NCBI GenBank assembly: GCA_965243805.1
Contig: OZ251577.1
Span: 839,344-903,343, forward strand
Origin: Longimicrobiales bacterium
Lineage (GTDB): Bacteria; Gemmatimonadota; Gemmatimonadetes; Longimicrobiales; Gaopeijiaceae
Length of the DNA: 64,000 bases
Direction of reading: 5' to 3'
Below the pieces are notes generated by a model. That model had not been told where the DNA came from. It searched no databases and was given only the letters and a program-made list of their open reading frames with translations. Below are positions 3,385 to 54,646 of this stretch, piece after piece; within the stretch, counting starts at the first letter, position 1; every line of letters starts with the position of its first letter. A program made the translations under genes and the position numbers.

Positions 3385-4622
3385 GGGCCTCGCGCTCCTT
3401 CCGCGGCGGCGTCTGGTCCGGCGGCCTGCTGTTCCGCGTCGCCTTCATCGGGCGCAACCAGAGCCTCCAGCTCGTCGCCACGAGCCTCGGCATCGGCTTC
3501 GCCCACGCGGATCAGCTCCTCCAAGTAGTCGGGCTGAAACATGATCATACTAAGGAAATCCGGAGCCTCCGTCTGCCGCGTGCCCAGTCCTCGGGTCAGA
3601 AACCGCAGTCCCTTGGGCAGGTCGGGCTCGTAGCGGTTGGCCAGCCGCCCCAGGTCGACGGAGGGGCGGATCGTGACCAGCTTCACTGGCCTCAGCCCTC
3701 CCCTGCGCTCCGGCGGCAGCTGATCGACCAGCGCGTTGATCCGGTCCAGCAGGTGGCCGTCCTGGTCCAGCACGTCCAGGAACACCGAGTTGAGCAGGAT
3801 GCCGGCGACCTGCGCTGGGGGAGGGTACCCTGTGACGGTGGGCACATCCGCCTCCGACGCCGTGCGCTCCCGACGAGTGCTGACCGCCAAGATCCGGCCC
3901 GCTCCCAGGTGCAGGGCGGGCGACAGCGGGGCCGTGAGACGGATGCCGCCGTCGCCGAACCAGTGGGGACCGATCCCGACGGCAGGAAAGACCAGCGGCA
4001 GCGCCGCCGACGCCATCACGTGGTCGATGGAGAGGGTGGTTGCCCGCGCTCGACGGTTGGGCCGCTGCCACTCCTGGATCTTGTGGCCTTGAGTCCACAT
4101 GACCGACTGGCCGGTGGAGTAGTTGGTGGTGCTCAGCGCAACGGCCTTCAGGCGACCCATACGGAGGTTGTAGTGGATCCCCGTCAGCTCTCCGTCCACC
4201 GCGTGGAGCGCTTCGGTCAGGTACGCCCGGAGCGGCGCCGTGTCCAGCAGGCCCCGTACCCGCGGGCTCGCCTTTCCGCCGCCGGAGATCAGCTGCCAGC
4301 CCCAGCGCGCCACATGACGAGCCAGCGACCACGGGTCGGTGCGGAAGACCTTCTCCGTCGTGAGGTCGGACCAGAGGTGGTGGAGTTCCTCGGCCGCCTG
4401 CTCGAAGGTGCCGTGGTGGGCGGCCAGGTGGGCCGCGTTGATCGCGCCCGCGCTCACTCCGGTGATGATCGGCACGTTCAGCCGCGGGAAGCGGAGCGCC
4501 AAGTGGCGGAGCACGCCCACCTGATACGCGGCCCGCGCCCCGCCGCCGCTCATGACGAACGCCAAGTCGCCGTGGCGCGCACGGGCGTCGTTGTCGGCCG
4601 AATCCACCTGAACCGGAGGCAT
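3381..4622 (-). CDS. Patatin-like phospholipase (413 aa)
   Basis: The GGGxR oxyanion motif (MSGGGARAAYQ), the GxSxG nucleophile (GVSAGA) and the catalytic DGG (FGDGGIR) are all present. The start is set at the internal ATG (MPPVQVDS); the upstream part of the 717-aa ORF is GC-rich read-through. Confidence 0.75.
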   Translation of the reverse strand: MPPVQVDSADNDARARHGDLAFVMSGGGARAAYQVGVLRHLALRFPRLNVPIITGVSAGAINAAHLAAHHGTFEQAAEELHHLWSDLTTEKVFRTDPWSLARHVARWGWQLISGGGKASPRVRGLLDTAPLRAYLTEALHAVDGELTGIHYNLRMGRLKAVALSTTNYSTGQSVMWTQGHKIQEWQRPNRRARATTLSIDHVMASAALPLVFPAVGIGPHWFGDGGIRLTAPLSPALHLGAGRILAVSTRRERTASEADVPTVTGYPPPAQVAGILLNSVFLDVLDQDGHLLDRINALVDQLPPERRGGLRPVKLVTIRPSVDLGRLANRYEPDLPKGLRFLTRGLGTRQTEAPDFLSMIMFQPDYLEELIRVGEADAEARGDELEALVAPDEGDAEQQAAGPDAAAEGARGP

Positions 4623-38029: not shown

Positions 38030-39568
38030 TCAGCCCACCCACCCCATCAGCACGGCCAAGCTCACCGCGCTCAGCCCCGTGAAGACCGCGATGCTGATCA
38101 CGGTGAACACGCGGGCGAACGGCGACGGGTAGAAGGCGCGGTCGCTCTTGGGGATCGCCTTCAGGCAGTAGTGGAAGTTGAGGCAGAAGATCACCGGCGC
38201 CACGAAGGTGGCCAGCGCGGACGCCAGCAGCACCAGGAAGACGGGCCGGGGCACGGCGGCGACGAACACGACGGCGGCGACCAGCGAGTACAGCATCGTC
38301 ATCCGGTAGATGTTGTACTCCGAGTACCACCTGCCGCGGTGCTCGGCGCCGATCCGATCCCTCGAAGTGCCTCGCAGCGCCGCAGTCGGGCGAAAGAGGT
38401 TGCGGGCGCAAGCGCCCACGATTCGCGGCCAACCGTCGAAGTAGTTGAAGGCCGTGGAGAAGGTGGCGGCGAAGGCGCCCGTCATGAACACGATCATCAT
38501 CCACGGTCCCACGCTCTCGGTGAAGATGCCGGCGATCTCCCCCATCACGCCCCGTCCCTCGACAGCGCTGGGGTACAGCCACACGGCGGCCAGCAACAGG
38601 AACACGCTGGCGATCACGAACGACACCACATGGCCGATCCGGAAGTCCCAGAGGCCGATCCGGAAGCAGCGCCGGCTGTACTCCGCCGCTCTGTCCGGCA
38701 GTTGGGACGTGTCCACCACCAAGTCCTCAATGCGCGGCGCGAAGGGGTCGAAGGGGGCCGCAAGTCCCGCGCCCTCCAGCCGCCTGCGTATCTTGCTCAT
38801 CCCCGCTCGCTTTGCCCGGCCCCACTCCGACGCCTGCAACGACACGTCCAGTCCGGTGGGGAGCAAGCCGAGCAAGGCGGCGATCACGAGCCACGATCCT
38901 TCGGGGGCACCGAAGACCACGAACCCGGTGAGCTCGCCCAGCGGCGCGGGCCGCACAAGGTAGACAGCCACCGCCGACACGAAGAGAAGCCCGCCCGCCA
39001 CCTTGGCGCCCGTCTCCAGCGCGGCGTACTGGCCGCGGAGCAAGATCATCACCGAACCGACGCCGATCAGCGCCGCCCATCCGGCCAGTGGGACTGGCAG
39101 ACCCAGGGTGGCGGAAAGCAGGTAGTAAAGCACCGCGGCCGCAGCCACCAAGCGTCCCGCCTGCCCAACGGCGCACTGGATCAACGTCGTGACCAGCACG
39201 TACCAGACCGGAAGCTTCTTCCACGCCGTGGCGTAGGCGGCCATCAGACTCTTGCCGGTGGCGTTGGTGAACCGGAACGCCAGCTCGAAGCCGTAGTACT
39301 TGAAGATGTACGCCACGGGAATGCACCACAGGAGCGCATAGCCGAACCGTCCGCCCGCGGCCGGCGCCGTGACCAGGTGGCTGGTGCCGATCCCGGTCAT
39401 CATCAGGATCATCCCGGGGCCGAAGTGGCGGAGCAGGCTGCGTGGCCTCATGTCGGGGACCACCAGGTCGTCGAAGTCGGGCCGGGGGCCGTCCAGATGC
39501 GACGCCGGCCGCGCTTCTTCCGTCGAGTCCGTTGGCACCATCTCTTGTTCTCCCCGGGGGTCAAGCAA
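38030..39568 (-). CDS. Polytopic membrane transporter (about 12 TM helices; possibly NRAMP/MntH-like family). The assignment is weak.
   Basis: The product is a 512-aa hydrophobic protein. I could not see the canonical DPGN motif, so the family call is tentative. Confidence 0.4.
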   Translation of the reverse strand: MLDPRGEQEMVPTDSTEEARPASHLDGPRPDFDDLVVPDMRPRSLLRHFGPGMILMMTGIGTSHLVTAPAAGGRFGYALLWCIPVAYIFKYYGFELAFRFTNATGKSLMAAYATAWKKLPVWYVLVTTLIQCAVGQAGRLVAAAAVLYYLLSATLGLPVPLAGWAALIGVGSVMILLRGQYAALETGAKVAGGLLFVSAVAVYLVRPAPLGELTGFVVFGAPEGSWLVIAALLGLLPTGLDVSLQASEWGRAKRAGMSKIRRRLEGAGLAAPFDPFAPRIEDLVVDTSQLPDRAAEYSRRCFRIGLWDFRIGHVVSFVIASVFLLLAAVWLYPSAVEGRGVMGEIAGIFTESVGPWMMIVFMTGAFAATFSTAFNYFDGWPRIVGACARNLFRPTAALRGTSRDRIGAEHRGRWYSEYNIYRMTMLYSLVAAVVFVAAVPRPVFLVLLASALATFVAPVIFCLNFHYCLKAIPKSDRAFYPSPFARVFTVISIAVFTGLSAVSLAVLMGWVG

Positions 39569-39641
39569 TCAAAAGACGAGCCAGGAGGCCAAGCGTCAAC
39601 ATCGCCCCGCTGGCTTGGGACCGAGGCGGGCACTACTTTCT

Positions 39642-39679
39642 CCGGGTCACGCCCCAGTGTCCCCGGGTCACGCCCCAGC
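39642..39679. repeat. Tandem direct repeat, 2 copies of ccgggtcacgccccag (period 22), in the divergent promoter region between the transporter and peptidase genes
   Basis: Seen directly in the sequence. Confidence 0.8.
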
Positions 39680-39705
39680 GCATTCCCACAAGAAGAGACT
39701 CCGTC

Positions 39706-41781
39706 ATGACGACGCTCCCGACGCCCCAGCGCTCCTTTTTTGGCTTTCCTCGCACGGCAGTCTGCGCCGGGCTCCTCGCCTTTGCGCTCGCTGGGATGAA
39801 CGACCAGGGGCTGGCGCAGCAACCCGAGAGCGACGCGCCCGACAACGACCGCTGGACCCCGGCGCTCAGCATGCACTACTCCCAACTCTCGGGCCTAGCG
39901 ATCTCCAGCGACGGCGCCGACGTGGCGTACGTGGTCCGCGAGCCTCTCATGGAGGGGGAGAAGTCCGAGTACCTGACCCACGTGTGGCTGGCGTCCAGCG
40001 ACGGAACTCGAGACCGCCAGTTCACGCGGGGCGCCAAATCGGCCTCCAATCCGTCGTTCTCGCCAGACGGCCGGTGGCTGGCCTTCACCACATCGCGCTC
40101 CGGCAAGAATCAGATATGGGTGATCGCCCTGGCAGGCGGCGAGGCCCGGCAGCTCACCGACGCCAAGGCCGGCGTGGGCGCGTACAGTTGGTCGCCAGAC
40201 GGAACCGCCATCGCCTTTGTGATGCGGGACCCGCCCACCGAGGAAGAGGAGAAGGCCGAGAAGGAGAAGCGGGACGTGGTCCTGGTGGATCAGAACTTCA
40301 AGTACGGCCACCTGTACACCGTGCCCTTCGACCCCGCCTCCACCGAGCCAGCCGAGGCCGTCCGCGTCACCGAGGGCGACTTCCACATCACCGGCTTCGA
40401 CTGGAGTCCCGACGGAAGGCGCCTGGTATTCGCTCACCAAGCCGACCCCCGCATCAACACGGGACGGCTTTCCGGCGACATCTCCATCGTCGGCGCTACC
40501 GGGGGCGACATCCGGCCGCTGGTAACCGGACCCGGAGTAGAGTCAGGTCCTCACTGGTCCCCCGACGGTGCCTTGATCGCCTATGCGTCCACCGGAGACC
40601 AGCCCGAGCCGATCGGCTTGGAGGATCTGTACGTGGTGGACCCAGAGAGCGGCGAGTCGCGGCGGCTAGCCGACACGCCGAACCGAAGCGCGTTCATCTT
40701 GGGATGGTCCGCCGATTCGAGGGAAGTCTTCCTGAACGAGGTGCTGCGCACGACCCGTCATGTCGTCACCGTGCCCGTCGGCGGAGGCGACGTGCGACAG
40801 GTCACCCAAGGCGAAGGCGTGGTAGGCTCCGTGGCGTTGGCGCCCGAAGCGGGACGCTTGGCACTGACGTGGGAGACGACCGACGAGCCCGTGGAAGTGC
40901 ACGTGTCGTCGCTGGCCGACTTTGCCCCGTCCCAGTTGAGCAGCGTGAACCAGGACGCGCCCCGCCCGCCGATGGGCCGCACCGAGCTACTGTCGTGGAG
41001 CGCGCCCGACGGCACCCCGGTGGAGGGACTGCTCACCTACCCCGTCGACTGGGAAGCCGGGACCCGGGTGCCCCTGATCCTCAACGTGCACGGCGGTCCG
41101 GCCGGCGTCTTCAGCCAGTCCTTCACTGGCTCGCCCAGCATCTACATGATCCAGTACTTCGCCCAGGAGGGCTTCGCCGTCTTGCGGCCCAACCCTCGCG
41201 GAAGCACTGGCTACGGCAAGGAGTTCCGCTACGCCAACTTCATGGACTGGGGCTACGGCGACCTGTCGGACCTGCTGGCGGGCGTGGACCACGTGATCGA
41301 GATGGGCGTTGCTCATGCCGACAGCCTGCTGCTGATGGGATGGAGCTACGGCGGCTACATGACGTCGTTCGCGGTGACCCAGACCGACCGCTTCCGCGCC
41401 GCGTCGATGGGCGCCGGTCTGCCGAACCTGATCAGCATGGTAAGCACGACCGACATCGGCGACTACTTGGCGGGCCACATGGGCGGCGAGTACTTCGACG
41501 ACTACGAGACCTACGAGAAGCACTCTGCCGTGTACCACATCAAGAACGTGACGACGCCCACCCAGGTGATCCACGGCGCTCAGGACCTGCGCGTCCCCTT
41601 CACCCAGGGCCAAGAGTTCTACAACTCGTTGACGCGCCTGGGCGTCGAAACCGAGATGATCGTCTATCCGCGCACGCCCCACGGTCCACGGGAACCCAAG
41701 TTCCTCATGGACGTGTCGGAGCGGATCATGACGTGGTTCGAGAAGCACCTGCGGAAGGAACCGCCCAGGGCGGACGGGTGA
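39706..41781 (+). CDS. S9-family serine peptidase (prolyl oligopeptidase / acylaminoacyl-peptidase-like) with an N-terminal beta-propeller, 691 aa
   Basis: It has a signal peptide, WD40-like/TolB-like repeats (SFSPDGRWLAF, SWSPDGTAIAF), the catalytic nucleophile GWSYGG, and Asp/His downstream. Confidence 0.8.
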   Translation: MTTLPTPQRSFFGFPRTAVCAGLLAFALAGMNDQGLAQQPESDAPDNDRWTPALSMHYSQLSGLAISSDGADVAYVVREPLMEGEKSEYLTHVWLASSDGTRDRQFTRGAKSASNPSFSPDGRWLAFTTSRSGKNQIWVIALAGGEARQLTDAKAGVGAYSWSPDGTAIAFVMRDPPTEEEEKAEKEKRDVVLVDQNFKYGHLYTVPFDPASTEPAEAVRVTEGDFHITGFDWSPDGRRLVFAHQADPRINTGRLSGDISIVGATGGDIRPLVTGPGVESGPHWSPDGALIAYASTGDQPEPIGLEDLYVVDPESGESRRLADTPNRSAFILGWSADSREVFLNEVLRTTRHVVTVPVGGGDVRQVTQGEGVVGSVALAPEAGRLALTWETTDEPVEVHVSSLADFAPSQLSSVNQDAPRPPMGRTELLSWSAPDGTPVEGLLTYPVDWEAGTRVPLILNVHGGPAGVFSQSFTGSPSIYMIQYFAQEGFAVLRPNPRGSTGYGKEFRYANFMDWGYGDLSDLLAGVDHVIEMGVAHADSLLLMGWSYGGYMTSFAVTQTDRFRAASMGAGLPNLISMVSTTDIGDYLAGHMGGEYFDDYETYEKHSAVYHIKNVTTPTQVIHGAQDLRVPFTQGQEFYNSLTRLGVETEMIVYPRTPHGPREPKFLMDVSERIMTWFEKHLRKEPPRADG

Positions 41782-41785
41782 CGTC

Positions 41786-43276
41786 ATGGCTGGATCGACA
41801 CGCAAGGGCAAGGGGGAGGGCAAGAGCGTCGCGGGCATCGAAGTCGCCAACTTCGGTCCAATTGTCGAGGCCGACGTGGACCTTCGGCCTCTCACGGTGT
41901 TCGTGGGTCCAAGCAACACGGGCAAGTCCTATTTGGCGATGTTGATCTACGCGCTCCACCGATTCGCAAGCGATCCGCTGTTCCATGGCTTCAGGCCCGC
42001 TCATCGCATGAAACTACTGCGGGACATTCCCGTGGAAGGTTTGGGTTCTGTACTGCGGGGCTGGCTGGAGGATGTATCTTTGGACGGTCGCCCCATGGTT
42101 GGACGCTTGCCAACGAGAGTATCGGCAGTTGTGCGCAGAGTACTCGCCGAGCCCGAACAGCTGGCGAACGCTCTGGGCGAGGGGATAGCGTCAAGTCTTG
42201 GATTTACCGATCTCGGCCACCTCGTCCGGCACGACGCGCAGGACTCGGCCACCGTGGCTTGGCGTGCCGGTGCCGCTGGCGGGCCTATGTCGAGATACAG
42301 CTACACGATCAAACGCCACGGCAAACCAACGCTTACCGGAGAAGTGCCCGCTACACTTGATCTACGAATCCCGTCGCCTCGCATCGGCAGATCGCTGTGG
42401 CTGCTGCGTCGGCATGCCGGTGCGGAGGAGTTGAGCGAATCCGATGTCCGTCGGATACTGGCCGACGTCGCCGATTTGGCCTTCTGTTCCACGGTTGGTC
42501 AGTTCAATCGGAGAGCACACTACTTACCGGCTGATCGCACGGGAATCATGCACGCTCACAGCATGGTGGTTCGCTCGCTGATTGGGCAGGCCTCACATGC
42601 CGGGATTCGCCGCCAAGTCGAAGTGCCTTTGTTGTCGGGCGTCTTGGCCGACTTCCTCGAGAACTTGATTGATCTGCCCAGCTCCAGATCGCAGTACGGA
42701 GAGCTCGTTGGAGTGATGGAATCCGATCTCTTGAGGGGATCGGTCGAAAGTAGGAAGTCCGACACTGGCTATCCTTTGTTCTCTTATCAGCCCAATGGCT
42801 GGGCGAACGGCCTCCCGCTGATGAATGCGTCGTCGATGGTGTCGGAACTTGCTCCGGTGGCACTGTACCTCCGCCACGTGGTCAAGCCGGGGGAGTTATT
42901 GATCATCGAGGAACCCGAGTCTCACTTGCATCCAGCCATGCAGGTTCGCCTTGCTCAATTCTTGGCCAGGGTTGCAAAACGCGGGCTACGGCTTCTGGTG
43001 ACGACACATAGCGAGATCTTCTTGGAGGCACTCAGCAACGTGATTGTCCTGGATGGCATCCCGGAGGCAGAACGAATCGGAATCTCAGGAAGCGATTCTA
43101 CCATACCGCAAGACGATGTGGGCGTTTGGCTGTTTGGTCGCGACGACGCTCGCGGATCGCACGTAAGAGAGATCGGACTGGATGTCGAGTCTGGAACGTT
43201 TCCCACGCAGTTCGAGCTAGTGAGCGAAGCCCTGTACTACGACTGGGCCAGAACCCTTGACCGGAGCAATGGATGA
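41786..43276 (+). CDS. OLD/AbiEii-like ABC-type ATPase (AAA_15/AAA_21 family), 496 aa, in a low-GC islet
   Basis: Walker A (FVGPSNTGKSYL), Walker B plus D-loop (LLIIEEPESHLHP) and H-loop (LLVTTHSEIF) are present. GC is about 10-12% below the flanks. The ATG lies only 4 nt after the peptidase stop. Confidence 0.7.
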   Translation: MAGSTRKGKGEGKSVAGIEVANFGPIVEADVDLRPLTVFVGPSNTGKSYLAMLIYALHRFASDPLFHGFRPAHRMKLLRDIPVEGLGSVLRGWLEDVSLDGRPMVGRLPTRVSAVVRRVLAEPEQLANALGEGIASSLGFTDLGHLVRHDAQDSATVAWRAGAAGGPMSRYSYTIKRHGKPTLTGEVPATLDLRIPSPRIGRSLWLLRRHAGAEELSESDVRRILADVADLAFCSTVGQFNRRAHYLPADRTGIMHAHSMVVRSLIGQASHAGIRRQVEVPLLSGVLADFLENLIDLPSSRSQYGELVGVMESDLLRGSVESRKSDTGYPLFSYQPNGWANGLPLMNASSMVSELAPVALYLRHVVKPGELLIIEEPESHLHPAMQVRLAQFLARVAKRGLRLLVTTHSEIFLEALSNVIVLDGIPEAERIGISGSDSTIPQDDVGVWLFGRDDARGSHVREIGLDVESGTFPTQFELVSEALYYDWARTLDRSNG

Positions 43277-43282
43277 ACGAAC

Positions 43283-43831
43283 ATGACTTCAGTTAGAAAT
43301 GCCATTTTGGCAAAGATTGAATCCCGTTGGCAGACGACCGAATCCCGTTGGCGGACCACAACATGCCAAAGCAATAACTGCTCGGTTGACATGGACAATG
43401 CCCCGGAACCGTTTGACATGATCAACCTCGATCGGATTGCGACAAGGGATCTGGAAGCCATGAGCGTCGATCGAAAGCGTTGCGACTACCTGTACTTGGG
43501 CACGGCGGACAACGGTGGTCACGTGGTGATCGCTCCTATTGAACTGAAGGGGGGCACCAACTTTCGGTCAGCCACTGTCGTACAGCAGTTGCAGACGGGA
43601 GCCGAGATAGCGGATGCCATCGTTCCGGCCGATGTGTCCTTCTCGTTTGTTCCCGTACTGGCTTCCCATAAGCCTCGGCGGCGTCATGTATGGCGGGGAC
43701 TGCGGACGCCAGTCATCTTCCGCAACAAGAGCCGTGCCATAACGACAATACAATGCGGCGAGCGGCTCACGACTGCGTTGGAGGCGGCCAGGACCAGGCG
43801 GGCCCCGGCCCCCGCGGTCGTCAGCTCGTAG
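43283..43831 (+). CDS. Hypothetical protein (182 aa), partner of the ATPase. No recognisable domain.
   Basis: It starts 7 nt after the ATPase stop and has the same low GC. It contains a tandem 21-bp duplication (ESRWQTT ESRWRTT). Confidence 0.4.
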   Translation: MTSVRNAILAKIESRWQTTESRWRTTTCQSNNCSVDMDNAPEPFDMINLDRIATRDLEAMSVDRKRCDYLYLGTADNGGHVVIAPIELKGGTNFRSATVVQQLQTGAEIADAIVPADVSFSFVPVLASHKPRRRHVWRGLRTPVIFRNKSRAITTIQCGERLTTALEAARTRRAPAPAVVSS

Positions 43832-43859
43832 CGGGCCAGCACGCGAGGGAACGCGCCGT

Positions 43860-45624: not shown

Positions 45625-48600
45625 CTACATCCCGTGACTTGCGGCAGCGGGCGACTGCCGTGGGGCTGGAGGACCTCCTGGCGCCAAGCTGGCGACGGCG
45701 GGGACGCGCGGCAAGGTGGGAGCCGATCCCTCCGCAGCCGGTCCGTCCGCAGCCGATTCCTGCGCCTCGATCCCCAGCCAACAGATCAGTTCCACTTCGG
45801 CGGGCTCGATGACCGGCAGCACCGGAGGGGGTCGCAGGGGCTCGAGACCCGTATCCAAAACTTGGTCGATCAGATGTCGCGACAGAGCGGCTCCGCGACG
45901 CTGTTTGGGCGAGTTGGCGTCGGCCGAGGCGTCGAACCACTGCCGCAGCATCATCTCCTCGCGACGGGGCCAGGGAGACTCCAGCACCTCGAGGGCGCGT
46001 CGAACGCGGTCTTCGGAGACGCCGGGCGGCGGATTGTTTCGAATGAAGGCGGCCACGCGCCGGTTCAGCGGTCGCAATCTGGGCTGGAGGTTGGCAGGGT
46101 CGGTCTCGTGCATCCAGTGTTCCCAGATGTCTTGGCGAGCGACGGTCCAAAAGTCGTAGGCGCGCTCCTGTACGACCGCAGGGAACCAAGTCGGCGTGTC
46201 CTCTTCACACTCGATCAGGCGCAAGCAGGCCCCTACCTCGGACTGGACGGCCGCTGAACGGTCGGGCATCCAGTCGGCGTCCGCGGGGACAAAGCGCAGG
46301 TACGTTCGTTCGAGCTTGGTACCGTGCCCGACGACTGCGCAGAAAAAGAATCCTCGGCGCGCGCCCCGCTTCACCATCCCCGAGCCGGTCTTCCACGGCA
46401 TCTCCACGATGCGGTCACGTTCGGCTTGGAGCGCCTTGCGCAACGTCTGACGGTACTCCTCGCCAGTCTGGGCGGCTCCGGCTGTGCCTCCGCGCTCGAA
46501 GAAGGCGGCGTCCTCGTGCAGCAGCTTCTCGATCTCCTCCCGGGTCTCGGTGAAGACCTGGCTGCCGTGCGCCGCCCCTTCGATGGGAGCCGCCACGCCT
46601 ACGCTCGCCGCCGCCATCGCCAGCTTTGCGAGAATGCGCTGCTCCAGGTTGAGCAATCGGTCGAGTCTGTCCACGGGGAAGATCGTCCGAAGGAAAACGC
46701 GATGGTGCGGGCTGCCGATTCGGTCGATGCGGCCGTGGCGCTGGACAAGACGCATCGGGTTCCACGGCATGTCGAAGTTGACGATGTGGCGACATTGCTG
46801 AAGGTTGACGCCCTCCGCGAGCACATCGGTGGAGACCAGGAGGTCGAAACGGTCCGCCGCCTGCCCTGCCGTTGCGCCCATGGAGACGGGGGCAAAGCCC
46901 TGGACGGCCTTCAGGCGGGACTCGGTGCTGGTGCGGCCGGAGCCGGTCGCCGTGGCGACGCGCCCTCGGTACGGCTCAAGGCCCGGGTGCTGTTGCACGG
47001 CGTCGGCCAGGTAGTCGCGTATCCACTCCACCGTGTCGGCGTAAGACGAGAAGACCAGCACCTTTCGTTTCTGGCGTTCGTCGTGGGAGTGGGCGGCCTC
47101 ACGCTCCGCCTGTTCGGCGACCTGGGCCAGGGCGTCCGCCAGCGCCCCCAGCTTGGGGTCTCGGTCGGGAGTGATCTTGGCCGCGTCTTCGGCCAGCTCT
47201 CGGAGAAGATGGCGGTCCCGTTCCACGTGCTGCCGCAGCCGTGGTACATCGTACAGGTTTGCATCCGAGTAGAGCCGCTCGTCGGGGTCGTCGCCCGCAC
47301 TTGCCAGCATCTCTTCCATTCCGGCCTCGTCGTCCGCCGAGAGCTCGCTGAGGAAGGCGGTGGTCACCACATATCCGGCATCCAGAGCGTCCAGAAACAC
47401 GTCGTGCATGGCGGCCATGCGCTCGGTGGTTTTCCTGAACGCGTGCGCCGAGGACTCGAAGCGCTTCAGCAGGCCCGACCGCAACAGCCCCACCACGGCG
47501 CGTCCACGGGCGCGCTCCTCTGGATCGTCGACGCGAAGCAAGTAGGCGGCGGGTGTGTAGCGCGAAAACGTAATAGCATCATCGCTATCGGGGTCCAGCG
47601 CCGCCTCCAGCCGGTCGAAGAAGCCGGGCAAGCGTTGATCCAGCGCGTAGCGGACCGTCACTGCATGGGGCACGGGAAACTCGATGCGGCGAGGCTGGCC
47701 GTCGGGTCCCGGTATCGTGTCGCCGGCGTAGTGCTTGCGCACGAACTGGCGGGTGCGCTTGACCGTGGTGGCGTCGATGATCGGGTAAAGGAGGTCCGGG
47801 CTCAAGTTCGACGGGTCTTCGCGCATGGCGGCTTCGAAGCGGCCTCGGATCGAGAGGATTCCCTGGTCCGCCAGATGCGCGTCTTGGCGCAGGAAAAAGC
47901 GGATCAGGTGGTACAGGTCCCAAAGCGAGTTGTTGACCGGCGTGGCCGTGAGGAGCAGCAGGTCGCGGCGCCGGCCAAAGAGGAGGCGTCTCATCGTAGC
48001 CGCTCGCGTCGGCGCGCCCGGGTTTCGGTAGTTGTGGGCCTCGTCCACGATGACCAGCTGGTACTCGTCCAGCCCTCGCTGCAAGTGCTCTTTGCCGGGC
48101 CGGTCGGCGTCCGGCGGCAGCAGCTGCACATCGTTGGCCAGCTGCTCGTAGGACAGCGACTCTGCGAATATCTCGTACTCGACGAGGAACTTCTTCCAGG
48201 TCGTGTCGCGCAACGCGGCAGGGCAGATCAGCAGGACACGTTGCCGCCGGTCGCGATACAACTGCAGGATCTCGCCCGCGATGAACGTCTTGCCCAACCC
48301 TACTTCGTCGGCGACGATGGCACCGCCCGTCGCCTTGATCAGCCGCAGCGCTCGAGCCACGCCGTGCTTTTGGAAGCTGGTCAGCGGCAGGTTCTTGTCG
48401 TCCTCGGCGTCCTGGTCCACCTCGTCGCCGTACAGCTGCCAGAGGACGCGAAGAAACACCTCCCATGGCCTGCGCGGCAGCAGCAGCTCCTCAAAGATGT
48501 CGACCAGGTCGTAGGGTACGGCTTCGTCCCAGAGGTGGTCGAACCACCGCCTTGCGTGCTCCACGGTGGAGGTGTCGTCGCGGCCGAGACTGAGTTCGAG

Positions 48601-49170
48601 GTTCGTGGTCAGGCCAGCGGCGGTGAGGTTGGAGGAGCCAGCAAGCACGCCTTCGGTGGCCTCGCCGGTCAGGACGTACGCCTTTGCGTGAAGGAACGCT
48701 TTCTCGTACCGACGAACCTCAATGTTCCCCGACCGCAACGCCTTGACCAGCATGGCCAAGTTAGATCGCCCGGCGTACGTAAACGGCAGGCGGTCGCGCT
48801 CTCGCCGAAGCTCTGTCGTCATGTGGGACAGGCACTCGCCGACGCAGCGCCGGTCGAAGTCGTCCTTCGGCTCGCCCAGCCGCCTTTGGCAAGGCGACAG
48901 GCCTTGGGCTGCCAAGTCGGCACCCAGAAGAAGGCGAACCATGGGGACTGTGGCCAGCCCGTCCGCGATCTGCGCGAACCCCGCCGGGCTGAAGTAGGCG
49001 GTGGCGATCCGCGCCTCGCTGGGCGGGCTTGTGGAAGGTTCGTCCGTGGATGCCGAGCCCGCCACGTTCAGCAACGAGCCAAGCGCCTGCGCGAGGGTGT
49101 TGCCGTGCCGGTTGTCTACAAAGCTCGGGAATGGTGGCGGGCCGACTGGTAGCCCATCAGTGCAATCCAT
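45625..49170 (-). CDS. Fusion of a phospholipase-D-like (HKD) nuclease domain and an SNF2-family helicase (about 1181 aa; start could instead be 49230)
   Basis: The N-terminal HKD motif is FLHAKAYVLTG...GSSNLTAAGL. The SNF2 motifs are I (IVADEVGLGKTF), II (VIVDEAHNYRN), III (LLLTATPVNN) and IV-VI (...LLVSTDVLAEGVNLQ...QRHGRIDRIG). The start overlaps the ImmA-like gene. Confidence 0.75.
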   Translation of the reverse strand: MDCTDGLPVGPPPFPSFVDNRHGNTLAQALGSLLNVAGSASTDEPSTSPPSEARIATAYFSPAGFAQIADGLATVPMVRLLLGADLAAQGLSPCQRRLGEPKDDFDRRCVGECLSHMTTELRRERDRLPFTYAGRSNLAMLVKALRSGNIEVRRYEKAFLHAKAYVLTGEATEGVLAGSSNLTAAGLTTNLELSLGRDDTSTVEHARRWFDHLWDEAVPYDLVDIFEELLLPRRPWEVFLRVLWQLYGDEVDQDAEDDKNLPLTSFQKHGVARALRLIKATGGAIVADEVGLGKTFIAGEILQLYRDRRQRVLLICPAALRDTTWKKFLVEYEIFAESLSYEQLANDVQLLPPDADRPGKEHLQRGLDEYQLVIVDEAHNYRNPGAPTRAATMRRLLFGRRRDLLLLTATPVNNSLWDLYHLIRFFLRQDAHLADQGILSIRGRFEAAMREDPSNLSPDLLYPIIDATTVKRTRQFVRKHYAGDTIPGPDGQPRRIEFPVPHAVTVRYALDQRLPGFFDRLEAALDPDSDDAITFSRYTPAAYLLRVDDPEERARGRAVVGLLRSGLLKRFESSAHAFRKTTERMAAMHDVFLDALDAGYVVTTAFLSELSADDEAGMEEMLASAGDDPDERLYSDANLYDVPRLRQHVERDRHLLRELAEDAAKITPDRDPKLGALADALAQVAEQAEREAAHSHDERQKRKVLVFSSYADTVEWIRDYLADAVQQHPGLEPYRGRVATATGSGRTSTESRLKAVQGFAPVSMGATAGQAADRFDLLVSTDVLAEGVNLQQCRHIVNFDMPWNPMRLVQRHGRIDRIGSPHHRVFLRTIFPVDRLDRLLNLEQRILAKLAMAAASVGVAAPIEGAAHGSQVFTETREEIEKLLHEDAAFFERGGTAGAAQTGEEYRQTLRKALQAERDRIVEMPWKTGSGMVKRGARRGFFFCAVVGHGTKLERTYLRFVPADADWMPDRSAAVQSEVGACLRLIECEEDTPTWFPAVVQERAYDFWTVARQDIWEHWMHETDPANLQPRLRPLNRRVAAFIRNNPPPGVSEDRVRRALEVLESPWPRREEMMLRQWFDASADANSPKQRRGAALSRHLIDQVLDTGLEPLRPPPVLPVIEPAEVELICWLGIEAQESAADGPAAEGSAPTLPRVPAVASLAPGGPPAPRQSPAAASHGM

Positions 49171-50335
49171 GGTACGTCTTGATCTTGTCGAATGTCGCCT
49201 TCTTCTTGATGGCCAGTAGATGGTACGCATCCATCGGCAGGGTCTGTAGCGACAGCGTGTGTGCGATCAAGTTACGCGAAAACCGTTCTCCGGTTCGAAC
49301 CATCTGCGTGCGCAAGAAGTTGCCTCCTGAACTCGGACGGGTGGATGCCATACGCTTTCGTTCGTTGTCGTAAGCGTCTTTGAATCTCTGGTGCGACAAG
49401 TATCCGGCGTCGCGAAGCCGTCGAAGAACGACCAGCGAGCTGACCTTGAAGTGGGTCGCCAGGCGTTGCAGAGTGCGCCTCAGCTTTTCGCCGTCGCGGT
49501 ACTGACTGCGCAAAGCGTCCAAGGGAACCAGCAGTTCGGCCGCCACTTGATTGCACCACTGCTCGGTCCGATGGCCCTCCAAGGACGCGAGTGTGGTGTT
49601 CGACAGTCCCGAGTTTCCCAGCCAAATGTGGGCCAACTCGTGTGCCAGAGTGAACATCTGGGCCGCCTTTGCGTCGGCGCCGTTCACGAAGACGAGGGGT
49701 GCTAGATCATCCGAGAGGGCGAATCCTCGGAATTCGTCGGGATCCAGCACGCGGGATGTGTTGTTTCCCACCACGCCGCTGATCATGACCAGCACGCCCT
49801 TGGCGTCGGCGCGGTCCGCAAAGCGACGAACAGCCAACGTCCAGTTAGGGACGTCGCTCCGGTCCCGGACCCGAAAATCCAAGGTGGATGACATGTTCCG
49901 GGCCACCTGGGCCGGATCGTCGCCCAGGCTGGCCGAGCCCACGAATTCAACGGGATCGTGTTCCTCCTCCACGGCATACTCGTGGTACCAGTCCTGACGC
50001 CGCTGGCACAGGTAGACGGTGTCCACTAGGTGTGCACTCGGCCTGCGGGGCTGCTTGCCAGTCGTGGTGCGGAAGTCGGCTATGCCCAGATCGTCGGTCA
50101 GGGGTCCGCCCGAGAAGAGCGCTCCGAACGGCGTGTAGGTCGCCTTAGCGAAGAGCTGGAGCTGCCGATAGGTAGGCTTGGTCGTGCCAGCCTCCCATTC
50201 GCGGTACTTGGGGAAGCGTCGCTCGAGCGTCTCCACATCTTTCCCCGAGCGTTCCTGCGCCCACCGGAGCGTCGCAGGATTCACAGACACCCGGTAGGGG
50301 CCACGCTGAGGTTGTGGGCTGGATGGAGTCGTCAT
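49157..50335 (-). CDS. Fused XRE-family HTH plus ImmA/IrrE-type zinc metallopeptidase regulator (392 aa)
   Basis: The N-terminal HTH_XRE is ...LRWAQERSGKDVETLERRF.... The HEXXH zinc motif is HELAHIWLGN, in a DUF955/ImmA-like context. Confidence 0.7.
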   Translation of the reverse strand: MTTPSSPQPQRGPYRVSVNPATLRWAQERSGKDVETLERRFPKYREWEAGTTKPTYRQLQLFAKATYTPFGALFSGGPLTDDLGIADFRTTTGKQPRRPSAHLVDTVYLCQRRQDWYHEYAVEEEHDPVEFVGSASLGDDPAQVARNMSSTLDFRVRDRSDVPNWTLAVRRFADRADAKGVLVMISGVVGNNTSRVLDPDEFRGFALSDDLAPLVFVNGADAKAAQMFTLAHELAHIWLGNSGLSNTTLASLEGHRTEQWCNQVAAELLVPLDALRSQYRDGEKLRRTLQRLATHFKVSSLVVLRRLRDAGYLSHQRFKDAYDNERKRMASTRPSSGGNFLRTQMVRTGERFSRNLIAHTLSLQTLPMDAYHLLAIKKKATFDKIKTYHGLH

Positions 50336-50372
50336 GCGGGAACACTCCCGGACGGATCGGCTGGGTCGACCT

Positions 50373-51140
50373 TCAAGGTAACCGATTGGGGGAACTGCGG
50401 AAGTGCTTCAGGACGGCATCCATTTGACTGTGGTAGTCCCAGCCCTCGTTGAAGGTCTCGAAGATGTGGACCAGTTGGCGTTCGGCAAGACCGTAGCAGT
50501 GCGCGACAAGGGCGTCGAGTTGGTGGATCAGGTCCTCTTTCTCGTCGTCGGCGAGCGGCCCCCACTCCACGCCGACGGCCTCCGCCCATTCGGCGAAGCG
50601 CTCGTCCGGGCACGCGAGACGACCCGCTATCTCCACGATGCGTTTCCACAGGGGGTCGTGGCGGCTGAGGCGGGGGATGGGGAAGGGATTGATGACGAAG
50701 TATGTGACATGTGTTTCGACAAATCGGCGAGCATACCAGTCCAAGGGAATCGAGCACAGGACGCCCAACAGGAAGGCTTGATCCTTCTCGTCGCCACGAG
50801 GCCAGAGGAAGTAGGGCGCATTGTGCACGACGAACACCCTTGGCGGCAAGAGGCAGGCGATGATGGTTCGCTTGTCCGTTGCACGTGCCACGTCGCGAAA
50901 CGCGATCCGAGGCTTGAAGCATGGTAACGTAGATTGGTCCTGAAGGATGCCTATCGGGAACTCTTTGTGTGCGCTGTCGCGCCGGCTCCTCGCCGCCCTA
51001 ATCCGCTTGCTCTGCAGCCAGTCGAGTACCGGGCTTGGGTTGGCCCAGGCGTAGGGCGGACCCTTGTTGGGATCCCATAGATCGAACGACGCGCCCTTGT
51101 ACACGGGCCAGTAACCGTCTTCGCGCTCGAAGCTCATCAT
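50373..51140 (-). CDS. Hypothetical protein (255 aa) between the methyltransferase and the ImmA-like regulator, in lower-GC DNA. It may become a C-terminal extension of the methyltransferase if the C26 tract changes length.
   Basis: Its ATG overlaps the methyltransferase stop (ATGATGA). Its reading frame is open upstream all the way to the poly-C tract. Confidence 0.45.
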   Translation of the reverse strand: MMSFEREDGYWPVYKGASFDLWDPNKGPPYAWANPSPVLDWLQSKRIRAARSRRDSAHKEFPIGILQDQSTLPCFKPRIAFRDVARATDKRTIIACLLPPRVFVVHNAPYFLWPRGDEKDQAFLLGVLCSIPLDWYARRFVETHVTYFVINPFPIPRLSRHDPLWKRIVEIAGRLACPDERFAEWAEAVGVEWGPLADDEKEDLIHQLDALVAHCYGLAERQLVHIFETFNEGWDYHSQMDAVLKHFRSSPNRLP

Positions 51141-54100
51141 TGGCTTCTGCGCCGTCGCGTGGAGGTCTGTGATCGGCCTTGCACGCCAGCCGACGGCTTG
51201 TCGAACACCATGAAGTGCTTCTGTGCTGTGGCGTCCATCTCGCGGTCTGGGCGTGCACGCCAGTTGCCTCCTCCCCCCCCCCCCCCCCCCCCCCCCCCAT
51301 TTATAATTGTGTCCTCAAATGTGTCAAGACGAGGTGCTTTGGACAGCTGGGCGAACACATCTACCGATTCGTCGCCGGGCAACAAGGGGAGCGACGCCGA
51401 GTCGTTCCACTGTTCAATGTCTTGCCGATAGAACACCAAGGGCTCATTGACCACGCCAGCGCGGAAGGCGGAATGGTCTGGATAGGGGCCGCGCATTCGC
51501 AACTGAGATCCTAATTCGTCTCCTCGGCGGGCTATCGCCACAAGCACAATCGTGTACTGAGGGGTGACACTCTCGAACACCCATCCCGCCCGATTTTTCA
51601 GAGCAACCGCATCCATACTGCTCGCCTCGCCAAACACCGCCTTCCGAAACTCCTGCGATCCTTTGGCCTGCAACGCACTCCTGGGCAGTACGACGCCAAT
51701 CCGTCCGCCCTGCTTTGCGGCCAGCCGCCAGAAGCGCCAGCAGAACGCCTTGTACACATCGGCGTCGCCGGTTCCCATGCCGGGGAAATCCCCTCCCAGC
51801 AACGCTCGTCGCACGTCGTCGTTTTCCCGCACCTCTTCTCGCAAGGCCACAACCAAGTCGGGGCGCTCCTGACGGAACCGCGCCTTCTCGGCCTCCTGGT
51901 GGCGCTGGGACATGCCGCGCAAACCGGGAAAGTGCCGCGCCCAGAAGCCGTGTTCCTCCACCTTGGGCTTCTTCCACGGCGGGTTGCCCAGGATCACGTC
52001 GAAGCCGGAGCGTTCGCGCAAAAAGACCTCCGGGAATGCTACCGGGAAGTGCAGCACGGCAAGGCCGGACAGCTCTTGCGCCGCCACAGCGTCGGGCATC
52101 TCCCCCTCTGCCAAGCCATCGCTGCGGGAATCCCAGTCCTGGAACTGGAAATCCTTGACCAATGTCCTGTCCGAGATCGGCCGGGCGGTGATCAGGTCGC
52201 ACAGCGCCTTGGTGGCCGCAACCGCTTCTTCCGCCTCCTGTTGGGCCTGCCGTGCTTGGCGCACCTCGGCCACCGTGGCGTCGTTCAAGTTGGCCAGCCG
52301 ACGCAGCGGCTTGGCGGCCTTGCCCAGCAGGGATTCGGCGTCGCATCGGAACAGCGGCGTATTGACGGCTTCAAGCTTGGCCTTGATGTCGTCAATAGTT
52401 CCGATGCCGACCAGCGAGTTCCCGCGAACCAAGTTGTGGTCCAGAAATGAAAGCGGGAGACCAGGCACGAACGTGTGAATCCACACGGCCAAACGAGCCA
52501 GCTGGACCGAAATGTCGTTCAGGTCCACGCCGTAGATGCACCGTCGCGCGATCATCCGACGCAGCAGTTGACCGTCCTCAATGGAAAATGCGCTAGCCGC
52601 GTCGCCGCCCAAATGGGTTCGCGCGGCTCGACGAAGCTCGGCCAGCTTGTTGCGCACGCGCGGCAAGTCGCGACCGACCAGAAAGTCGGCCATTCCCTTC
52701 TCGATTCGGTCGATGGCACCGACCAGGAAGTGGCCCGAGCCCATGGCGATGTCAGCCACCCGGAAGTCGAAGAACCTCTCGGCGGCGGTGGCGTCGTCCA
52801 TGGAGTCCAAGCGCTCGAAATGGTCTTTCAGCGCGGGTTCAAGCGCCTTGTCCAGCAGGTGCCCCACGGCGAACGGCTTGGTGTAGTAGCTGCCCGTGAA
52901 CTTGCGAACTCCAGAGCGGTTGTGCAGGTAGGTCTCCCCTTCGGAGACGACGACTCGCGCCTTCGGCTTGGCTGGCACGTAGGTTCCCTTGCTGTCCACG
53001 GCCAAGTCCGTGTTCGCCACGGCAAGTTCGGACTCAAGCAGGCCCTCGTAGATCGTGCCGAACTCTCTCACACGCAGCGACCGGAAGTCCACGGGTCCCG
53101 GTCCGCCTTCGGGCGTCTCAATGACCAAGAGATGACGCAGGGCGACCTCAAAGACTTCGTTGGGCAACGAGACGCGGGCCAACTCAGCGCCGGTCTCCGA
53201 CACCTTCGGGTCGTTGCTGAACAATCCGCCGTCGTACTCGGGCACGCCCCACTCCGAGTTGCCGACCGCCACTGCCTCGCACAAGCGGGCCACCTCCTGC
53301 CAGTGGGCGTCGCCTGGGGCCACGGGCGTGTTCTCGGTCGCCTGTTTGACCAGCTCCTGCGCCTTCTGCTTGAGCGAACGGCGACGGTAGGCGTCGTTGG
53401 TGCGGTAGGGCAACAGGTCGCAGTCCTCAGCGTACGCTATGAAGAGGAGGCGGAACAGCACCGTCATGGCCATGTCGTAGGTGCGAGCCAACTCCGGCGC
53501 GGTCAGCGACTCGATGCCTCTTGCGTCGGCGATGCCCTGTGCGAGCCTTGGGACGACTTGGTCGTAGATGCGCTCGCGGAGACGTTCGGCCAAGTTGCCG
53601 GCAAAACGACGGGAATCATCCAGGATTTTGTCCAGGCTGCCCTCCGGCGCCAGCGCTTCGGCGGAGAAGATCAGCCACAGGTACGCCAAGTCGGGATCGG
53701 TCAGCAGCGGAGTTTGGCACTCCACGTAGGTCTCGGTGCGGCCGCGCCTGCCGACGCCCCGGTCGGTGGCGGTCGAGTAGAGGCGCAACCGGTTGCCTTG
53801 GACCATCAACACCCAGGACAGGTTTTCGTCGTCGGCCTTCTTGAGCGCGTAGGTGACCGGCGACAGGCTGTTGAAGCGAGGGTTGCCGGCTTCCGCCGAC
53901 TCGTGGTCGTGCAGCAGGACGGCGAGGGCGGTGCGTCGCTGGCCGCCATCCCCGCTCAGGAGAAGGCGGGTCAGATTGTCCAGCGGGGCAACGCGAAAGC
54001 CCAGGGCACCCAGCATCTCGATTGCGCGGGTGCCGATTGCCTTCTGGGCCTTGCGACCGGCGGCGATCCAGTCGGGTCGCTGCCGAACCGCCGTCACGAG

Positions 54101-54646
54101 GTTATGGATGGCCAGCAGCCCCTCGTTGCGGATGCCCGGCAGATCGGTCTCCAGCGACGGCAGGGCTTGGGAGAGAAACTGAAGCGCCGAGTGGCGGTCC
54201 GGCTGCACCAAGGCTTCCCGGCAGATTCGTTCGACCCGCTCGGTGTCCAGGCCAGTCCAGACTGCGGGCTTCTCTCCTGTGGGACCGCAGAGCGCCGCGC
54301 CTTCGGGGTGAAGCACGGCCAGGAGCACCGGGGCCGCACGACCGGCTCGACGGTCCTGGTGAGCGGCGGCCATGGCGAGCCGGGACGGAGTGCGGTCGGC
54401 ACGGGCAACCACAACCTCCAGGCCATGGTCGCCTTCGCCTACGAAGAGGCCGGCGGGCTGGAAGCCGAACCGCGGGCTGGGCGACCAGGGGCGGGGAACT
54501 AGTTCGGGAAGGAAGTCCAAGGATCGTCGGGCAAGCGGCCCGCCCGATCTGGCGAGTCCGGCTTGTGGGCGAAAAAACGGGGGGGGGGGGGGGGGAGCAT
54601 AGAGCGACGCTCGAACAGGCGCAAATGCAGGGGCTGTCAGGCACAC
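51137..54646 (-). CDS. Large N6-adenine DNA methyltransferase of the PglX / DrmMI / Eco57I-like (type IIG-related) family, 1169 aa, with homopolymer tracts near both ends
   Basis: The SAM motif I is DIAMGSGHFLVGA and catalytic motif IV is VILGNPPWKKPK. A G17 run at codons 18-23 gives a Pro run, and a C26 run near the 3' end gives a Gly12 run. Confidence 0.75.
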   Translation of the reverse strand: MCLTAPAFAPVRASLYAPPPPPPFFRPQAGLARSGGPLARRSLDFLPELVPRPWSPSPRFGFQPAGLFVGEGDHGLEVVVARADRTPSRLAMAAAHQDRRAGRAAPVLLAVLHPEGAALCGPTGEKPAVWTGLDTERVERICREALVQPDRHSALQFLSQALPSLETDLPGIRNEGLLAIHNLVTAVRQRPDWIAAGRKAQKAIGTRAIEMLGALGFRVAPLDNLTRLLLSGDGGQRRTALAVLLHDHESAEAGNPRFNSLSPVTYALKKADDENLSWVLMVQGNRLRLYSTATDRGVGRRGRTETYVECQTPLLTDPDLAYLWLIFSAEALAPEGSLDKILDDSRRFAGNLAERLRERIYDQVVPRLAQGIADARGIESLTAPELARTYDMAMTVLFRLLFIAYAEDCDLLPYRTNDAYRRRSLKQKAQELVKQATENTPVAPGDAHWQEVARLCEAVAVGNSEWGVPEYDGGLFSNDPKVSETGAELARVSLPNEVFEVALRHLLVIETPEGGPGPVDFRSLRVREFGTIYEGLLESELAVANTDLAVDSKGTYVPAKPKARVVVSEGETYLHNRSGVRKFTGSYYTKPFAVGHLLDKALEPALKDHFERLDSMDDATAAERFFDFRVADIAMGSGHFLVGAIDRIEKGMADFLVGRDLPRVRNKLAELRRAARTHLGGDAASAFSIEDGQLLRRMIARRCIYGVDLNDISVQLARLAVWIHTFVPGLPLSFLDHNLVRGNSLVGIGTIDDIKAKLEAVNTPLFRCDAESLLGKAAKPLRRLANLNDATVAEVRQARQAQQEAEEAVAATKALCDLITARPISDRTLVKDFQFQDWDSRSDGLAEGEMPDAVAAQELSGLAVLHFPVAFPEVFLRERSGFDVILGNPPWKKPKVEEHGFWARHFPGLRGMSQRHQEAEKARFRQERPDLVVALREEVRENDDVRRALLGGDFPGMGTGDADVYKAFCWRFWRLAAKQGGRIGVVLPRSALQAKGSQEFRKAVFGEASSMDAVALKNRAGWVFESVTPQYTIVLVAIARRGDELGSQLRMRGPYPDHSAFRAGVVNEPLVFYRQDIEQWNDSASLPLLPGDESVDVFAQLSKAPRLDTFEDTIINGGGGGGGGGGGNWRARPDREMDATAQKHFMVFDKPSAGVQGRSQTSTRRRRSQ
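51273..51298. repeat. Homopolymeric tract of about 26 C (plus strand) inside the 3' end of the methyltransferase gene
   Basis: Read directly from the sequence. It is a simple-sequence contingency-locus candidate. Confidence 0.9.
54579..54595. repeat. Homopolymeric tract of about 17 G (plus strand; a C-run on the coding strand) 50 nt into the methyltransferase ORF
   Basis: Read directly from the sequence, preceded by an A6 run. Confidence 0.9.

Follow-up and report, generated by a model that had tools for sequence, protein, structure and literature searches.

The 64,000-nucleotide (nt) stretch of contig OZ251577.1 from a Longimicrobiales bacterium (positions 839,344 to 903,343; hereafter the window) contains two closely spaced genes of low GC content that encode an ATPase of 496 amino acids (aa) and a partner protein of 182 aa, and the locus raises the question of what such a pair does. 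A first-pass annotation, made from the sequence alone, had proposed a candidate abortive-infection or defense pair, in which an 'OLD/AbiEii-like' ATPase is accompanied by a protein without any recognizable nuclease motif that may define a new variant. From sequence comparison and by analogy to characterized systems, we consider it probable that the two genes constitute an anti-phage module of the class formed by an OLD-type ATP-binding cassette (ABC) ATPase and a small nuclease with a restriction-endonuclease (REase) fold. The defense idea is well supported, because the two genes are strict neighbors across phyla, occur in restriction-modification (R-M), Hma-like and DISARM-like contexts, and are homologous to validated systems, namely WonAB and, at the level of the ATPase, PD-T4-4. 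The idea of a new variant largely fails, because the partner is a predicted REase-fold nuclease related to a known partner family. Homologous loci in other genomes are labeled L001 to L019.

The 182-aa partner belongs to a large family. When the partner sequence alone was used in a word-indexed search, only four relatives were returned. Open reading frames (ORFs) downstream of distant ATPase homologues (L003, L004) are plainly homologous to the partner, a profile of six sequences retrieved 133 proteins, and an exhaustive HMMER search with a profile of 94 sequences reached 1,650 representative clusters with a cutoff of E ≤ 1e-3 and 1,021 with one of E ≤ 1e-10. No Pfam domain was found in any of the 94 aligned family members. 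A match of the partner itself to DUF5033 (E 0.019) was reproduced by no family member and was rejected as noise. The exact 182-aa product of the window was absent from a collection of 15 billion proteins, where a different start was probably called. Among the gene calls, the partner appears as a 113-aa version in L004 and is lacking in L002 and L017, yet the gene is intact in L004 and L017. Since gene callers often miss or truncate the partner gene, the family is likely under-counted in databases.

In the 94-sequence alignment, C67, D68, L88, G106 and C158 are invariant, and C33, P41, D50, R66, Y69, L70, P85, E87, K89, Q102 and L103 are conserved in at least 90% of the sequences. The conserved succession R-C-D-Y-L … P-x-E-L-K-G … Q-L thus provides the partner with a PD-(D/E)xK signature. 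In an AlphaFold2 (AF2) model of the partner (pLDDT, the predicted score in the local distance difference test, 89.5; predicted template modeling score, pTM, 0.86), strand 69-74 is headed by D68, strand 80-89 terminates with E87-x-K89, and the next helix contains Q102. The model matches REase-fold nucleases and contains the core alpha-beta-beta-beta-alpha-beta fold, with the catalytic D…(D/E)xK residues, which are conserved across the family, on consecutive core strands. Because of the conserved signature and the confident placement of D68, E87-x-K89 and Q102 in the model, we assign the partner as a divergent, stand-alone PD-(D/E)xK nuclease of predicted activity. The earlier description of a partner without nuclease motif was thus correct with respect to HNH and TOPRIM domains, neither of which was found in Pfam and PADLOC scans of the partner and its 94 relatives, but not with respect to motifs in general.

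Cysteines are a further conserved feature of the family. C28 is conserved in 87%, C33 in 99%, and C67 and C158 (codon 43754-43756) in 100% of the sequences, which suggests that C28, C33, C67 and C158 are a candidate four-cysteine structural metal site.

The relationship of the partner to a known family was assessed with WonAB, a system of the Vibrio cholerae WASA-1 prophage that consists of an OLD-type ABC ATPase and a small 'variant of the PD-(D/E)xK fold' (Adams et al., PMC12137116). An alignment of nine WonB/Novel REase proteins, with sequences taken from Supplementary Tables 4/5 of PMC12137116, shows D41, C51-D52 and E69-L70-K71 to be invariant. When the partner family was compared with this alignment using hhalign, a match was obtained over 48 columns (probability 94.7%, E 6e-8, score 50.8), in which R-C-D-Y-L, E-L-K-G and the helix Q are all in register and K89 of the partner corresponds to K71 of WonB. 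Ten column-shuffled controls gave E-values of 0.38-0.9 and scores of about 10. As judged from the catalytic core only, the partner is a remote homologue of the WonB family. In the PADLOC scans, PDC-M47B was matched by 45 of the 94 members of the partner family (best E 5.8e-7). These findings overturn the view of the partner as an unidentifiable protein that matches no known partner family, with the restriction that the matches to the WonB ('Novel REase') family and to PDC-M47B are at superfamily level only.

For the 496-aa protein, Pfam identified AAA_15 (2.4e-18) and AAA_21 (1.3e-16). Conservation was scored over 65 homologues with 41-90% identity. The motifs GPSNTGKS, LLIIEEPESHLHP and TTHS named in the first-pass annotation are present, and the full ABC motif set (Walker A, the Q-loop region, the signature, Walker B, the D-loop and the H-loop) is invariant in the 65 homologues, although the signature itself is divergent. 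Since the motifs are invariant, the enzyme is expected to be catalytically competent. BLASTP alignments of the window ATPase with WonA-type ATPases covered Walker A and the region from the signature to the H-loop, with approximately 24-36% identity in the surroundings of the motifs only. In these alignments, SSMVSE is paired with 'SSSGQQE' or 'ASSGQQS' and departs from the SSGQQE of the WonA-type ATPases. By its motif position, R251 would be the counterpart of the 'IPAGRS' arginine of these enzymes, R182 in WonA. The alignment also enters the C-terminal extension, reaching residue 453, and the WonAB model in PMC12137116 makes this extension a candidate docking surface for the nuclease.

The AF2 model of the ATPase (pLDDT 84.7, pTM 0.88) has PtuA of Septu and retron effector complexes as the nearest solved folds and also matches the heads of SMC, Rad50 and RecN, but it contains no coiled-coil insertion of the kind typical of SMC and Rad50. 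A sequence search of the PDB returned OLD and PtuA only, around Walker B and the H-loop. Among the best 25 of 132 PADLOC matches, PD-T4-4_A (8e-31, 105.7 bits, two fragments, the best one covering residues 315-424) and PDC-M47A (2.7e-26, 90.5 bits, two fragments of a 461-position model) stand ahead of NsnB, AriA, HEC-01A, GajA and Old, with the AriA, GajA and Old models matching the C-terminal half of the protein. The best matches are defense ATPases throughout. We conclude that the 496-aa protein is an OLD-type ABC ATPase.

Of the earlier label 'OLD/AbiEii-like', the OLD-type part is confirmed by Pfam, the PDB search and the fold, while the AbiEii-like part goes back to nothing but the Pfam name of AAA_21. 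AbiE consists of the nucleotidyltransferase toxin AbiEii and the winged-helix antitoxin AbiEi. No AbiE model was found among the best 25 of the 132 PADLOC matches of the ATPase, and the partner matched PDC-M47B only. Membership in AbiE was rejected, as the only link is the Pfam name and the partner has a nuclease fold.

The two genes are conserved as neighbors. Species-representative genomes were scanned for partner loci, and in 11 of 11 partner-anchored loci an ATPase homologue with 31-76% identity ends just upstream, in the same order. These loci are from Longimicrobiales, other Gemmatimonadetes, Terriglobia, other Acidobacteriota, 'Ca. Versatilivorator', Azotimanducaceae, Arenicellales, Rhodothermales and Poribacteria, and the pair is spread over at least five phyla. 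When the ATPase served as the anchor, an intact partner was found in five of seven loci (L003, L004, L017, L018 and L019), while it was frameshifted in one and deleted in another.

The deletion is found in L001, a close relative with flanking proteins that are 94-97% identical to those of the window and fully collinear. A clean deletion of 583 bp (L001:5473-5485 versus 43276-43858 of the window) removes the ATPase stop codon together with the whole nuclease gene, and the orphan ATPase runs on into the antisense strand of DUF885. It is 80% identical to the ATPase of the window, carries a 7-aa internal deletion and shows a rate of nonsynonymous substitution (dN) of 0.095 compared to 0.011-0.022 in the neighboring genes, with a ratio of nonsynonymous to synonymous rates (dN/dS) of 0.32 compared to 0.06-0.12. 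This looks like decay after loss of the effector. Since L005, a more distant Longimicrobiales locus, retains the peptidase, ATPase and partner genes in this order, the state of L001 is a loss. In L016 (L016:7398-7925), the partner is frameshifted just past the RCDYLFIG strand and matches the profile at positions 1-67 only, while the ATPase ORF is full-length. The strict pairing and the pattern of losses fit functional interdependence of the two proteins, in which an effector that may be costly is lost from time to time.

In the window, the two ORFs have the lengths and positions given by the first-pass annotation, and its descriptions of a tight spacing and a low GC content hold as well. Only 4 nt separate the stop of the peptidase gene from the start of the ATPase gene, and 6 nt separate the ATPase stop from the nuclease start. 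The GC content of the pair is 0.587 compared to a mean of 0.677 (standard deviation 0.028) for all windows of equal size in the 64 kb, making the pair the GC minimum among all 2-kb stretches. The GC content at third codon positions (GC3) is 0.67, compared to 0.84-0.90 in the flanking peptidase, Nramp-like and DUF885 genes. The composition of the pair is foreign, and both genes are intact with all catalytic motifs conserved.

The neighborhood of the pair contains defense genes in the window and at several of the other loci. Window positions 45625-54646 on the minus strand form a defense island with a PLD-SNF2 helicase, an M78/IrrE-like peptidase and a type IIG/DrmMI-like R-M enzyme (Table 1). 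The latter is encoded by two ORFs that overlap by 4 nt and may represent a natural split or a frameshift. In L019 (L019:4272-13485), the pair lies inside a type I R-M operon between HsdM and HsdS/HsdR, in the order HsdM, pair, HicB, DUF1828, a second AAA_15/21 ATPase, NTase_sub_bind, HsdS, Fic and HsdR. In L018 (L018:2606-10810), a HEPN_Swt1/DUF499 gene flanks it on one side and a DUF1156 gene on the other, which is an Hma-like arrangement. L012 (L012:398-4504) carries two complete pairs in tandem (398-1897/1897-2370 and 2529-4013/~4001-4504), followed by a 962-aa gene whose N-terminus we take, from its sequence, to be DUF1156-like. The neighbors at L004 and L017 are metabolic, and no single companion system is obligatory.

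Further differences between the loci were observed. L002 (L002:5948-9415) and L003 (L003:4171-7638) each carry, directly convergent to the pair, a PLD-SNF2 helicase that is 83% identical to that of the window (45625-49230), while the ATPase and the nuclease of the pair are only 52% and 41% identical, respectively, to those of the window. The same neighbor beside a diverged pair suggests a hot spot with cassette exchange, or a pair that evolves faster than its surroundings. L001 contains an extra 525-aa AAA_22/AAA_35 gene (L001:7230-8807) between DUF885 and the PLD-SNF2 helicase, which is a 1.6-kb insertion compared to the window, and the L016 locus is ringed by three AAA_22/AAA_35 genes that are similar to it. 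A PDDEXK_11 gene lies downstream of the pair in L004. It was considered as the partner and rejected, since it is a separate gene.

Table 1. Coordinates of the gene pair, of its sequence motifs and of neighboring genes in the 64,000-nt window.
Feature	Coordinates	Strand	Basis or conservation
S9 prolyl-oligopeptidase-family gene, just upstream of the pair	39442..41781		Pfam Peptidase_S9 5.6e-47
OLD-type ABC ATPase, 496 aa, predicted sensor/activator	41786..43276	+	ORF listing, Pfam, PADLOC, AF2 model
Walker A GPSNTGKS, residues 41-48	41906..41929	+	G41, S43, N44, G46, K47, S48 invariant in 65 homologues
YLPADRTG, residues 246-253, Q-loop-region equivalent	42521..42544	+	Y246, L247, P248, A249, R251, G253 invariant
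ABC signature position SSMVSE, residues 349-354	42830..42847	+	S349, S350, M351, S353, E354 invariant
Walker B and D-loop LLIIEEPESHLHP, residues 371-383	42896..42934	+	I373 and E375 to P383 invariant
H-loop TTHS, residues 406-409	43001..43012	+	T407, H408, S409 invariant
ATPase C-terminal extension, residues 424-496: two strands, long helix	43055..43273	+	Model secondary structure
Small PD-(D/E)xK/REase-fold nuclease, 182 aa, predicted effector	43283..43831	+	ORF listing
C28-x4-C33 hairpin	43364..43381	+	Cysteine conservation
R66-C67-D68-Y69-L70, putative first catalytic acid D68, start of core beta-strand	43478..43492	+	Aligns with WonB C51-D52
P85-I-E87-L88-K89-G90, (D/E)xK motif	43535..43552	+	Aligns with WonB E69-L70-K71
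Q102-L103, helix after ExK strand, conserved polar residue	43586..43591	+	Aligns with WonB-family Q
PLD-SNF2 helicase, 1,201 aa	45625..49230	-	PADLOC HKD+Snf2 2e-52, DrmD 3e-41
M78/IrrE-like peptidase, capP/RmrA-like	49157..50335	-	Domain/PADLOC scans
Type IIG/DrmMI-like R-M enzyme, ORF 2, 255 aa	50373..51140	-	Positions 1132-1370 of the same PADLOC model as ORF 1
Type IIG/DrmMI-like R-M enzyme, ORF 1, 1,169 aa	51137..54646	-	PADLOC model positions 30-1096

The best model for the action of the pair is provided by WonAB, in which defense requires both genes and is abolished by WonA Walker A, R182 (R182A), Walker B and H-loop mutants as well as by WonB K71A (PMC12137116). WonB is labile to Lon and is lost when WonA is inactive, and its overproduction is toxic, albeit only together with active WonA (PMC12137116). 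The defense is abortive and proceeds via translation arrest without degradation of chromosomal DNA, and tRNA or rRNA is the suspected substrate of WonB (PMC12137116). From WonAB, we infer for the present pair that the two proteins form a complex with ATP-dependent activation, and we also draw on this system for the trigger, the substrate and the abortive outcome. The 496-aa ATPase would dimerize via its ABC head and bind or hydrolyze ATP at composite sites, and its variable inserts and C-terminal extension would hold the 182-aa nuclease and restrain it. A phage-derived cue would shift the state of the ATPase and license the nuclease, with D68, E87 and K89 as the putative catalytic residues. 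The nuclease would then cut nucleic acid, by analogy perhaps RNA of the translation apparatus and not bulk DNA, and the infected cell would be arrested or killed ahead of phage assembly. By this analogy, the pair probably acts by abortive infection.

A number of observations weigh against the assignment of the pair to a WonAB-like anti-phage module. The homology between partner and WonB is limited to the 48-column catalytic core. None of the 94 members of the partner family matched PDC-M29B at E ≤ 0.01, a model that true members match with E-values of up to 3.7e-62, and none matched PD-T4-4_B at the same threshold. The window protein itself matched PDC-M47B only, and only marginally (E 0.008). 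As the SSMVSE signature is atypical, the mechanics of the ATPase may differ. Moreover, the pair has been at its locus since the divergence of the related Longimicrobiales genomes, so that it is not a recent mobile acquisition, and no tblastn match to the partner was found in plasmid or phage records and no relatives in IMG/VR. A promoter scan at the pair gave 0 promoters, and a terminator scan gave one terminator-like site, which lies on the wrong strand. Neither result departs from chance, and transcription of the pair may depend on the upstream peptidase gene.

The cysteine site, the atypical signature and a second-line role could, taken together, mark the present clade as a mechanistically distinct branch, which we regard as unlikely. 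In that case, the nuclease could be gated by a metal or Fe-S/redox site made up of C28, C33, C67 and C158, one of which stands beside the catalytic Asp, and the SSMVSE signature could alter ATP-driven dimerization. As a 'second-line' sensor plugged into R-M, Hma or DISARM-like systems, the module could then fire when anti-restriction factors of the phage disable the host system, and cut translation RNA and not DNA.

The frequent proximity to other defense genes also raises the question of whether the pair is an anti-phage module in its own right. It could instead be an accessory or second-line module of a neighboring restriction-type system, for example one that senses anti-restriction proteins and works only in concert with that system. 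In the window, the system concerned would consist of the PLD-SNF2 helicase, the M78 peptidase and the type IIG/DrmMI-like methylase, and at other loci it would be an Hma-like or type I R-M system. Genes for the PLD-SNF2 and type IIG proteins lie 1.8 kb downstream of the pair, the 83%-identical helicase adjoins a 52%-identical pair in L002/L003, the pair is nested within type I R-M in L019 and flanked by DUF499 and DUF1156 genes in L018, and the embedding of ABC-ATPase systems has been discussed (bioRxiv 2024.01.29.577857). However, no neighbor is common to all loci, since L004 and L017 have metabolic surroundings and the PLD-SNF2 gene is shared only by L002/L003. In the window, a housekeeping-type DUF885 gene parts the pair from the helicase on the opposite strand, and both WonAB (PMC12137116) and PD-T4-4 are functional when cloned alone. 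We therefore consider non-autonomy rather improbable.

Still less probable is a selfish toxin-antitoxin (TA) or addiction module, in which the ATPase would hold the nuclease as a toxin and stabilize a genomic island without a dedicated anti-phage role. The simple TA sequestration model is excluded for WonAB, because the toxicity of WonB requires active WonA (PMC12137116), and plasmid copies were not found by tblastn in plasmid records. L001 and L016 have lost or disrupted the nuclease while the ATPase ORF is still there, which fits the loss of a costly effector but discriminates only weakly. In favor of an addiction module, the pair consists of two tightly coupled genes of foreign composition, one of them for a small nuclease that may be toxic, overproduced WonB is toxic (PMC12137116), and TA genes (HicB, Phd/YefM-like, Fic) lie near some copies. 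A housekeeping ATPase-nuclease for DNA repair or chromosome maintenance, like SbcCD, Rad50-Mre11 or RecN, would agree with the match of the ATPase fold to SMC, Rad50 and RecN heads and with the chromosomal, syntenic position of the pair in related genomes. It is hardly credible in view of the patchy distribution, the foreign GC content and the ready loss or pseudogenization in close relatives, the tandem duplication in L012, the embedding in R-M systems, the lack of the coiled-coil insertion typical of SMC/Rad50 and the best sequence matches of the ATPase, which are all defense ATPases.

Through the assignment as a two-gene anti-phage module, a Pfam-less family that comprises over 1,000 sequence clusters gains a predicted fold, putative catalytic residues and a likely function. 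It is found in environmental phyla that have been little studied, such as Gemmatimonadota, Acidobacteriota, Poribacteria, Rhodothermales and marine Gammaproteobacteria. Since there is no Pfam model and the partner reaches no more than E 0.008 with PDC-M47B, this branch is probably missed by annotation resources and under-counted in defense censuses. The natural nuclease-loss alleles L001 and L016 are ready comparisons for the mutual dependence of the subunits. The present pair joins three separately named entities (WonAB/PDC-M29, PDC-M47 and PD-T4-4) in one ATPase-REase class and does not represent a new type of immunity.

Among the known systems, WonAB has itself been related by Adams et al. 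to PD-T4-4 and to the 'OLD-ABC ATPase + novel REase' operon of Krishnan et al. 2020, which is present in approximately 0.96% of bacterial genomes (as cited in PMC12137116). In the PADLOC scans, WonB-type proteins matched PDC-M29B with E-values of up to 3.7e-62, a few of them also PDC-M47B, and WonA-type ATPases matched PDC-M29A, AriA and PD-T4-4_A. PDC-M29A is not among the best 25 of the 132 matches of the window ATPase. An exact-match probe with the published primer for quantitative PCR of wonB returned nothing from viral contigs. Like WonAB and the Novel REase operons, the present pair consists of an ATPase gene followed on the same strand by a gene for a small nuclease (~145-180 aa). The ATPases share Walker A, the 'PA(G/D)R' arginine loop, the EEPE(A/S)HL(F/H)P Walker B/D-loop and the TTHS H-loop, and the nucleases share the C-D…E-L-K-G…Q core and N-terminal cysteines. 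In contrast to the WonA-type enzymes, the present ATPase has inserts that are longer by about 100 aa, and SSMVSE in place of SSGQQE. C158, a C-terminal cysteine that is invariant, sets the nuclease apart from WonB, and an extra N-terminal helix is present in the window clade. Whereas WonAB is prophage-borne, the present pair is chromosomal in GC-rich environmental phyla, and no copies were found on phage, viral or plasmid records.

The most specific cross-matches of both genes are to PDC-M47, with PDC-M47B as the sole consistent match of the partner family, but the scores of the present pair are far below family level, so that the two are related only. The PDC-M models are experimentally untested 'guilt-by-embedding' candidates (bioRxiv 2024.01.29.577857), and the names PDC-M47 and PDC-M29 were not found in the searchable literature. 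PD-T4-4 is a validated defense system of Escherichia coli (Vassallo et al. 2022, PMC9519451), the nuclease (B subunit) of which was classed as PD-(D/E)xK in a 2025 preprint. It resembles the present pair in having two genes for an ABC ATPase and a PD-(D/E)xK nuclease, but differs in that none of the 94 members of the partner family matched PD-T4-4_B at E ≤ 0.01; such operons can carry 'a distinct nuclease' (Adams et al., PMC12137116). Septu (PtuAB), Gabija (GajAB), PARIS (AriAB) and OLD have in common with the pair a sensor ATPase of the OLD/ABC type, with PtuA as the closest solved fold, while their effectors are HNH (PtuB) or TOPRIM (GajA, AriB, OLD) and not stand-alone REase-fold nucleases. 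Taken together, WonAB/PDC-M29, PDC-M47, PD-T4-4 and the present clade constitute one class of OLD-type ABC ATPases with small REase-fold nucleases that is already known, and in which the present pair represents a distinct, distant and hitherto unannotated branch.

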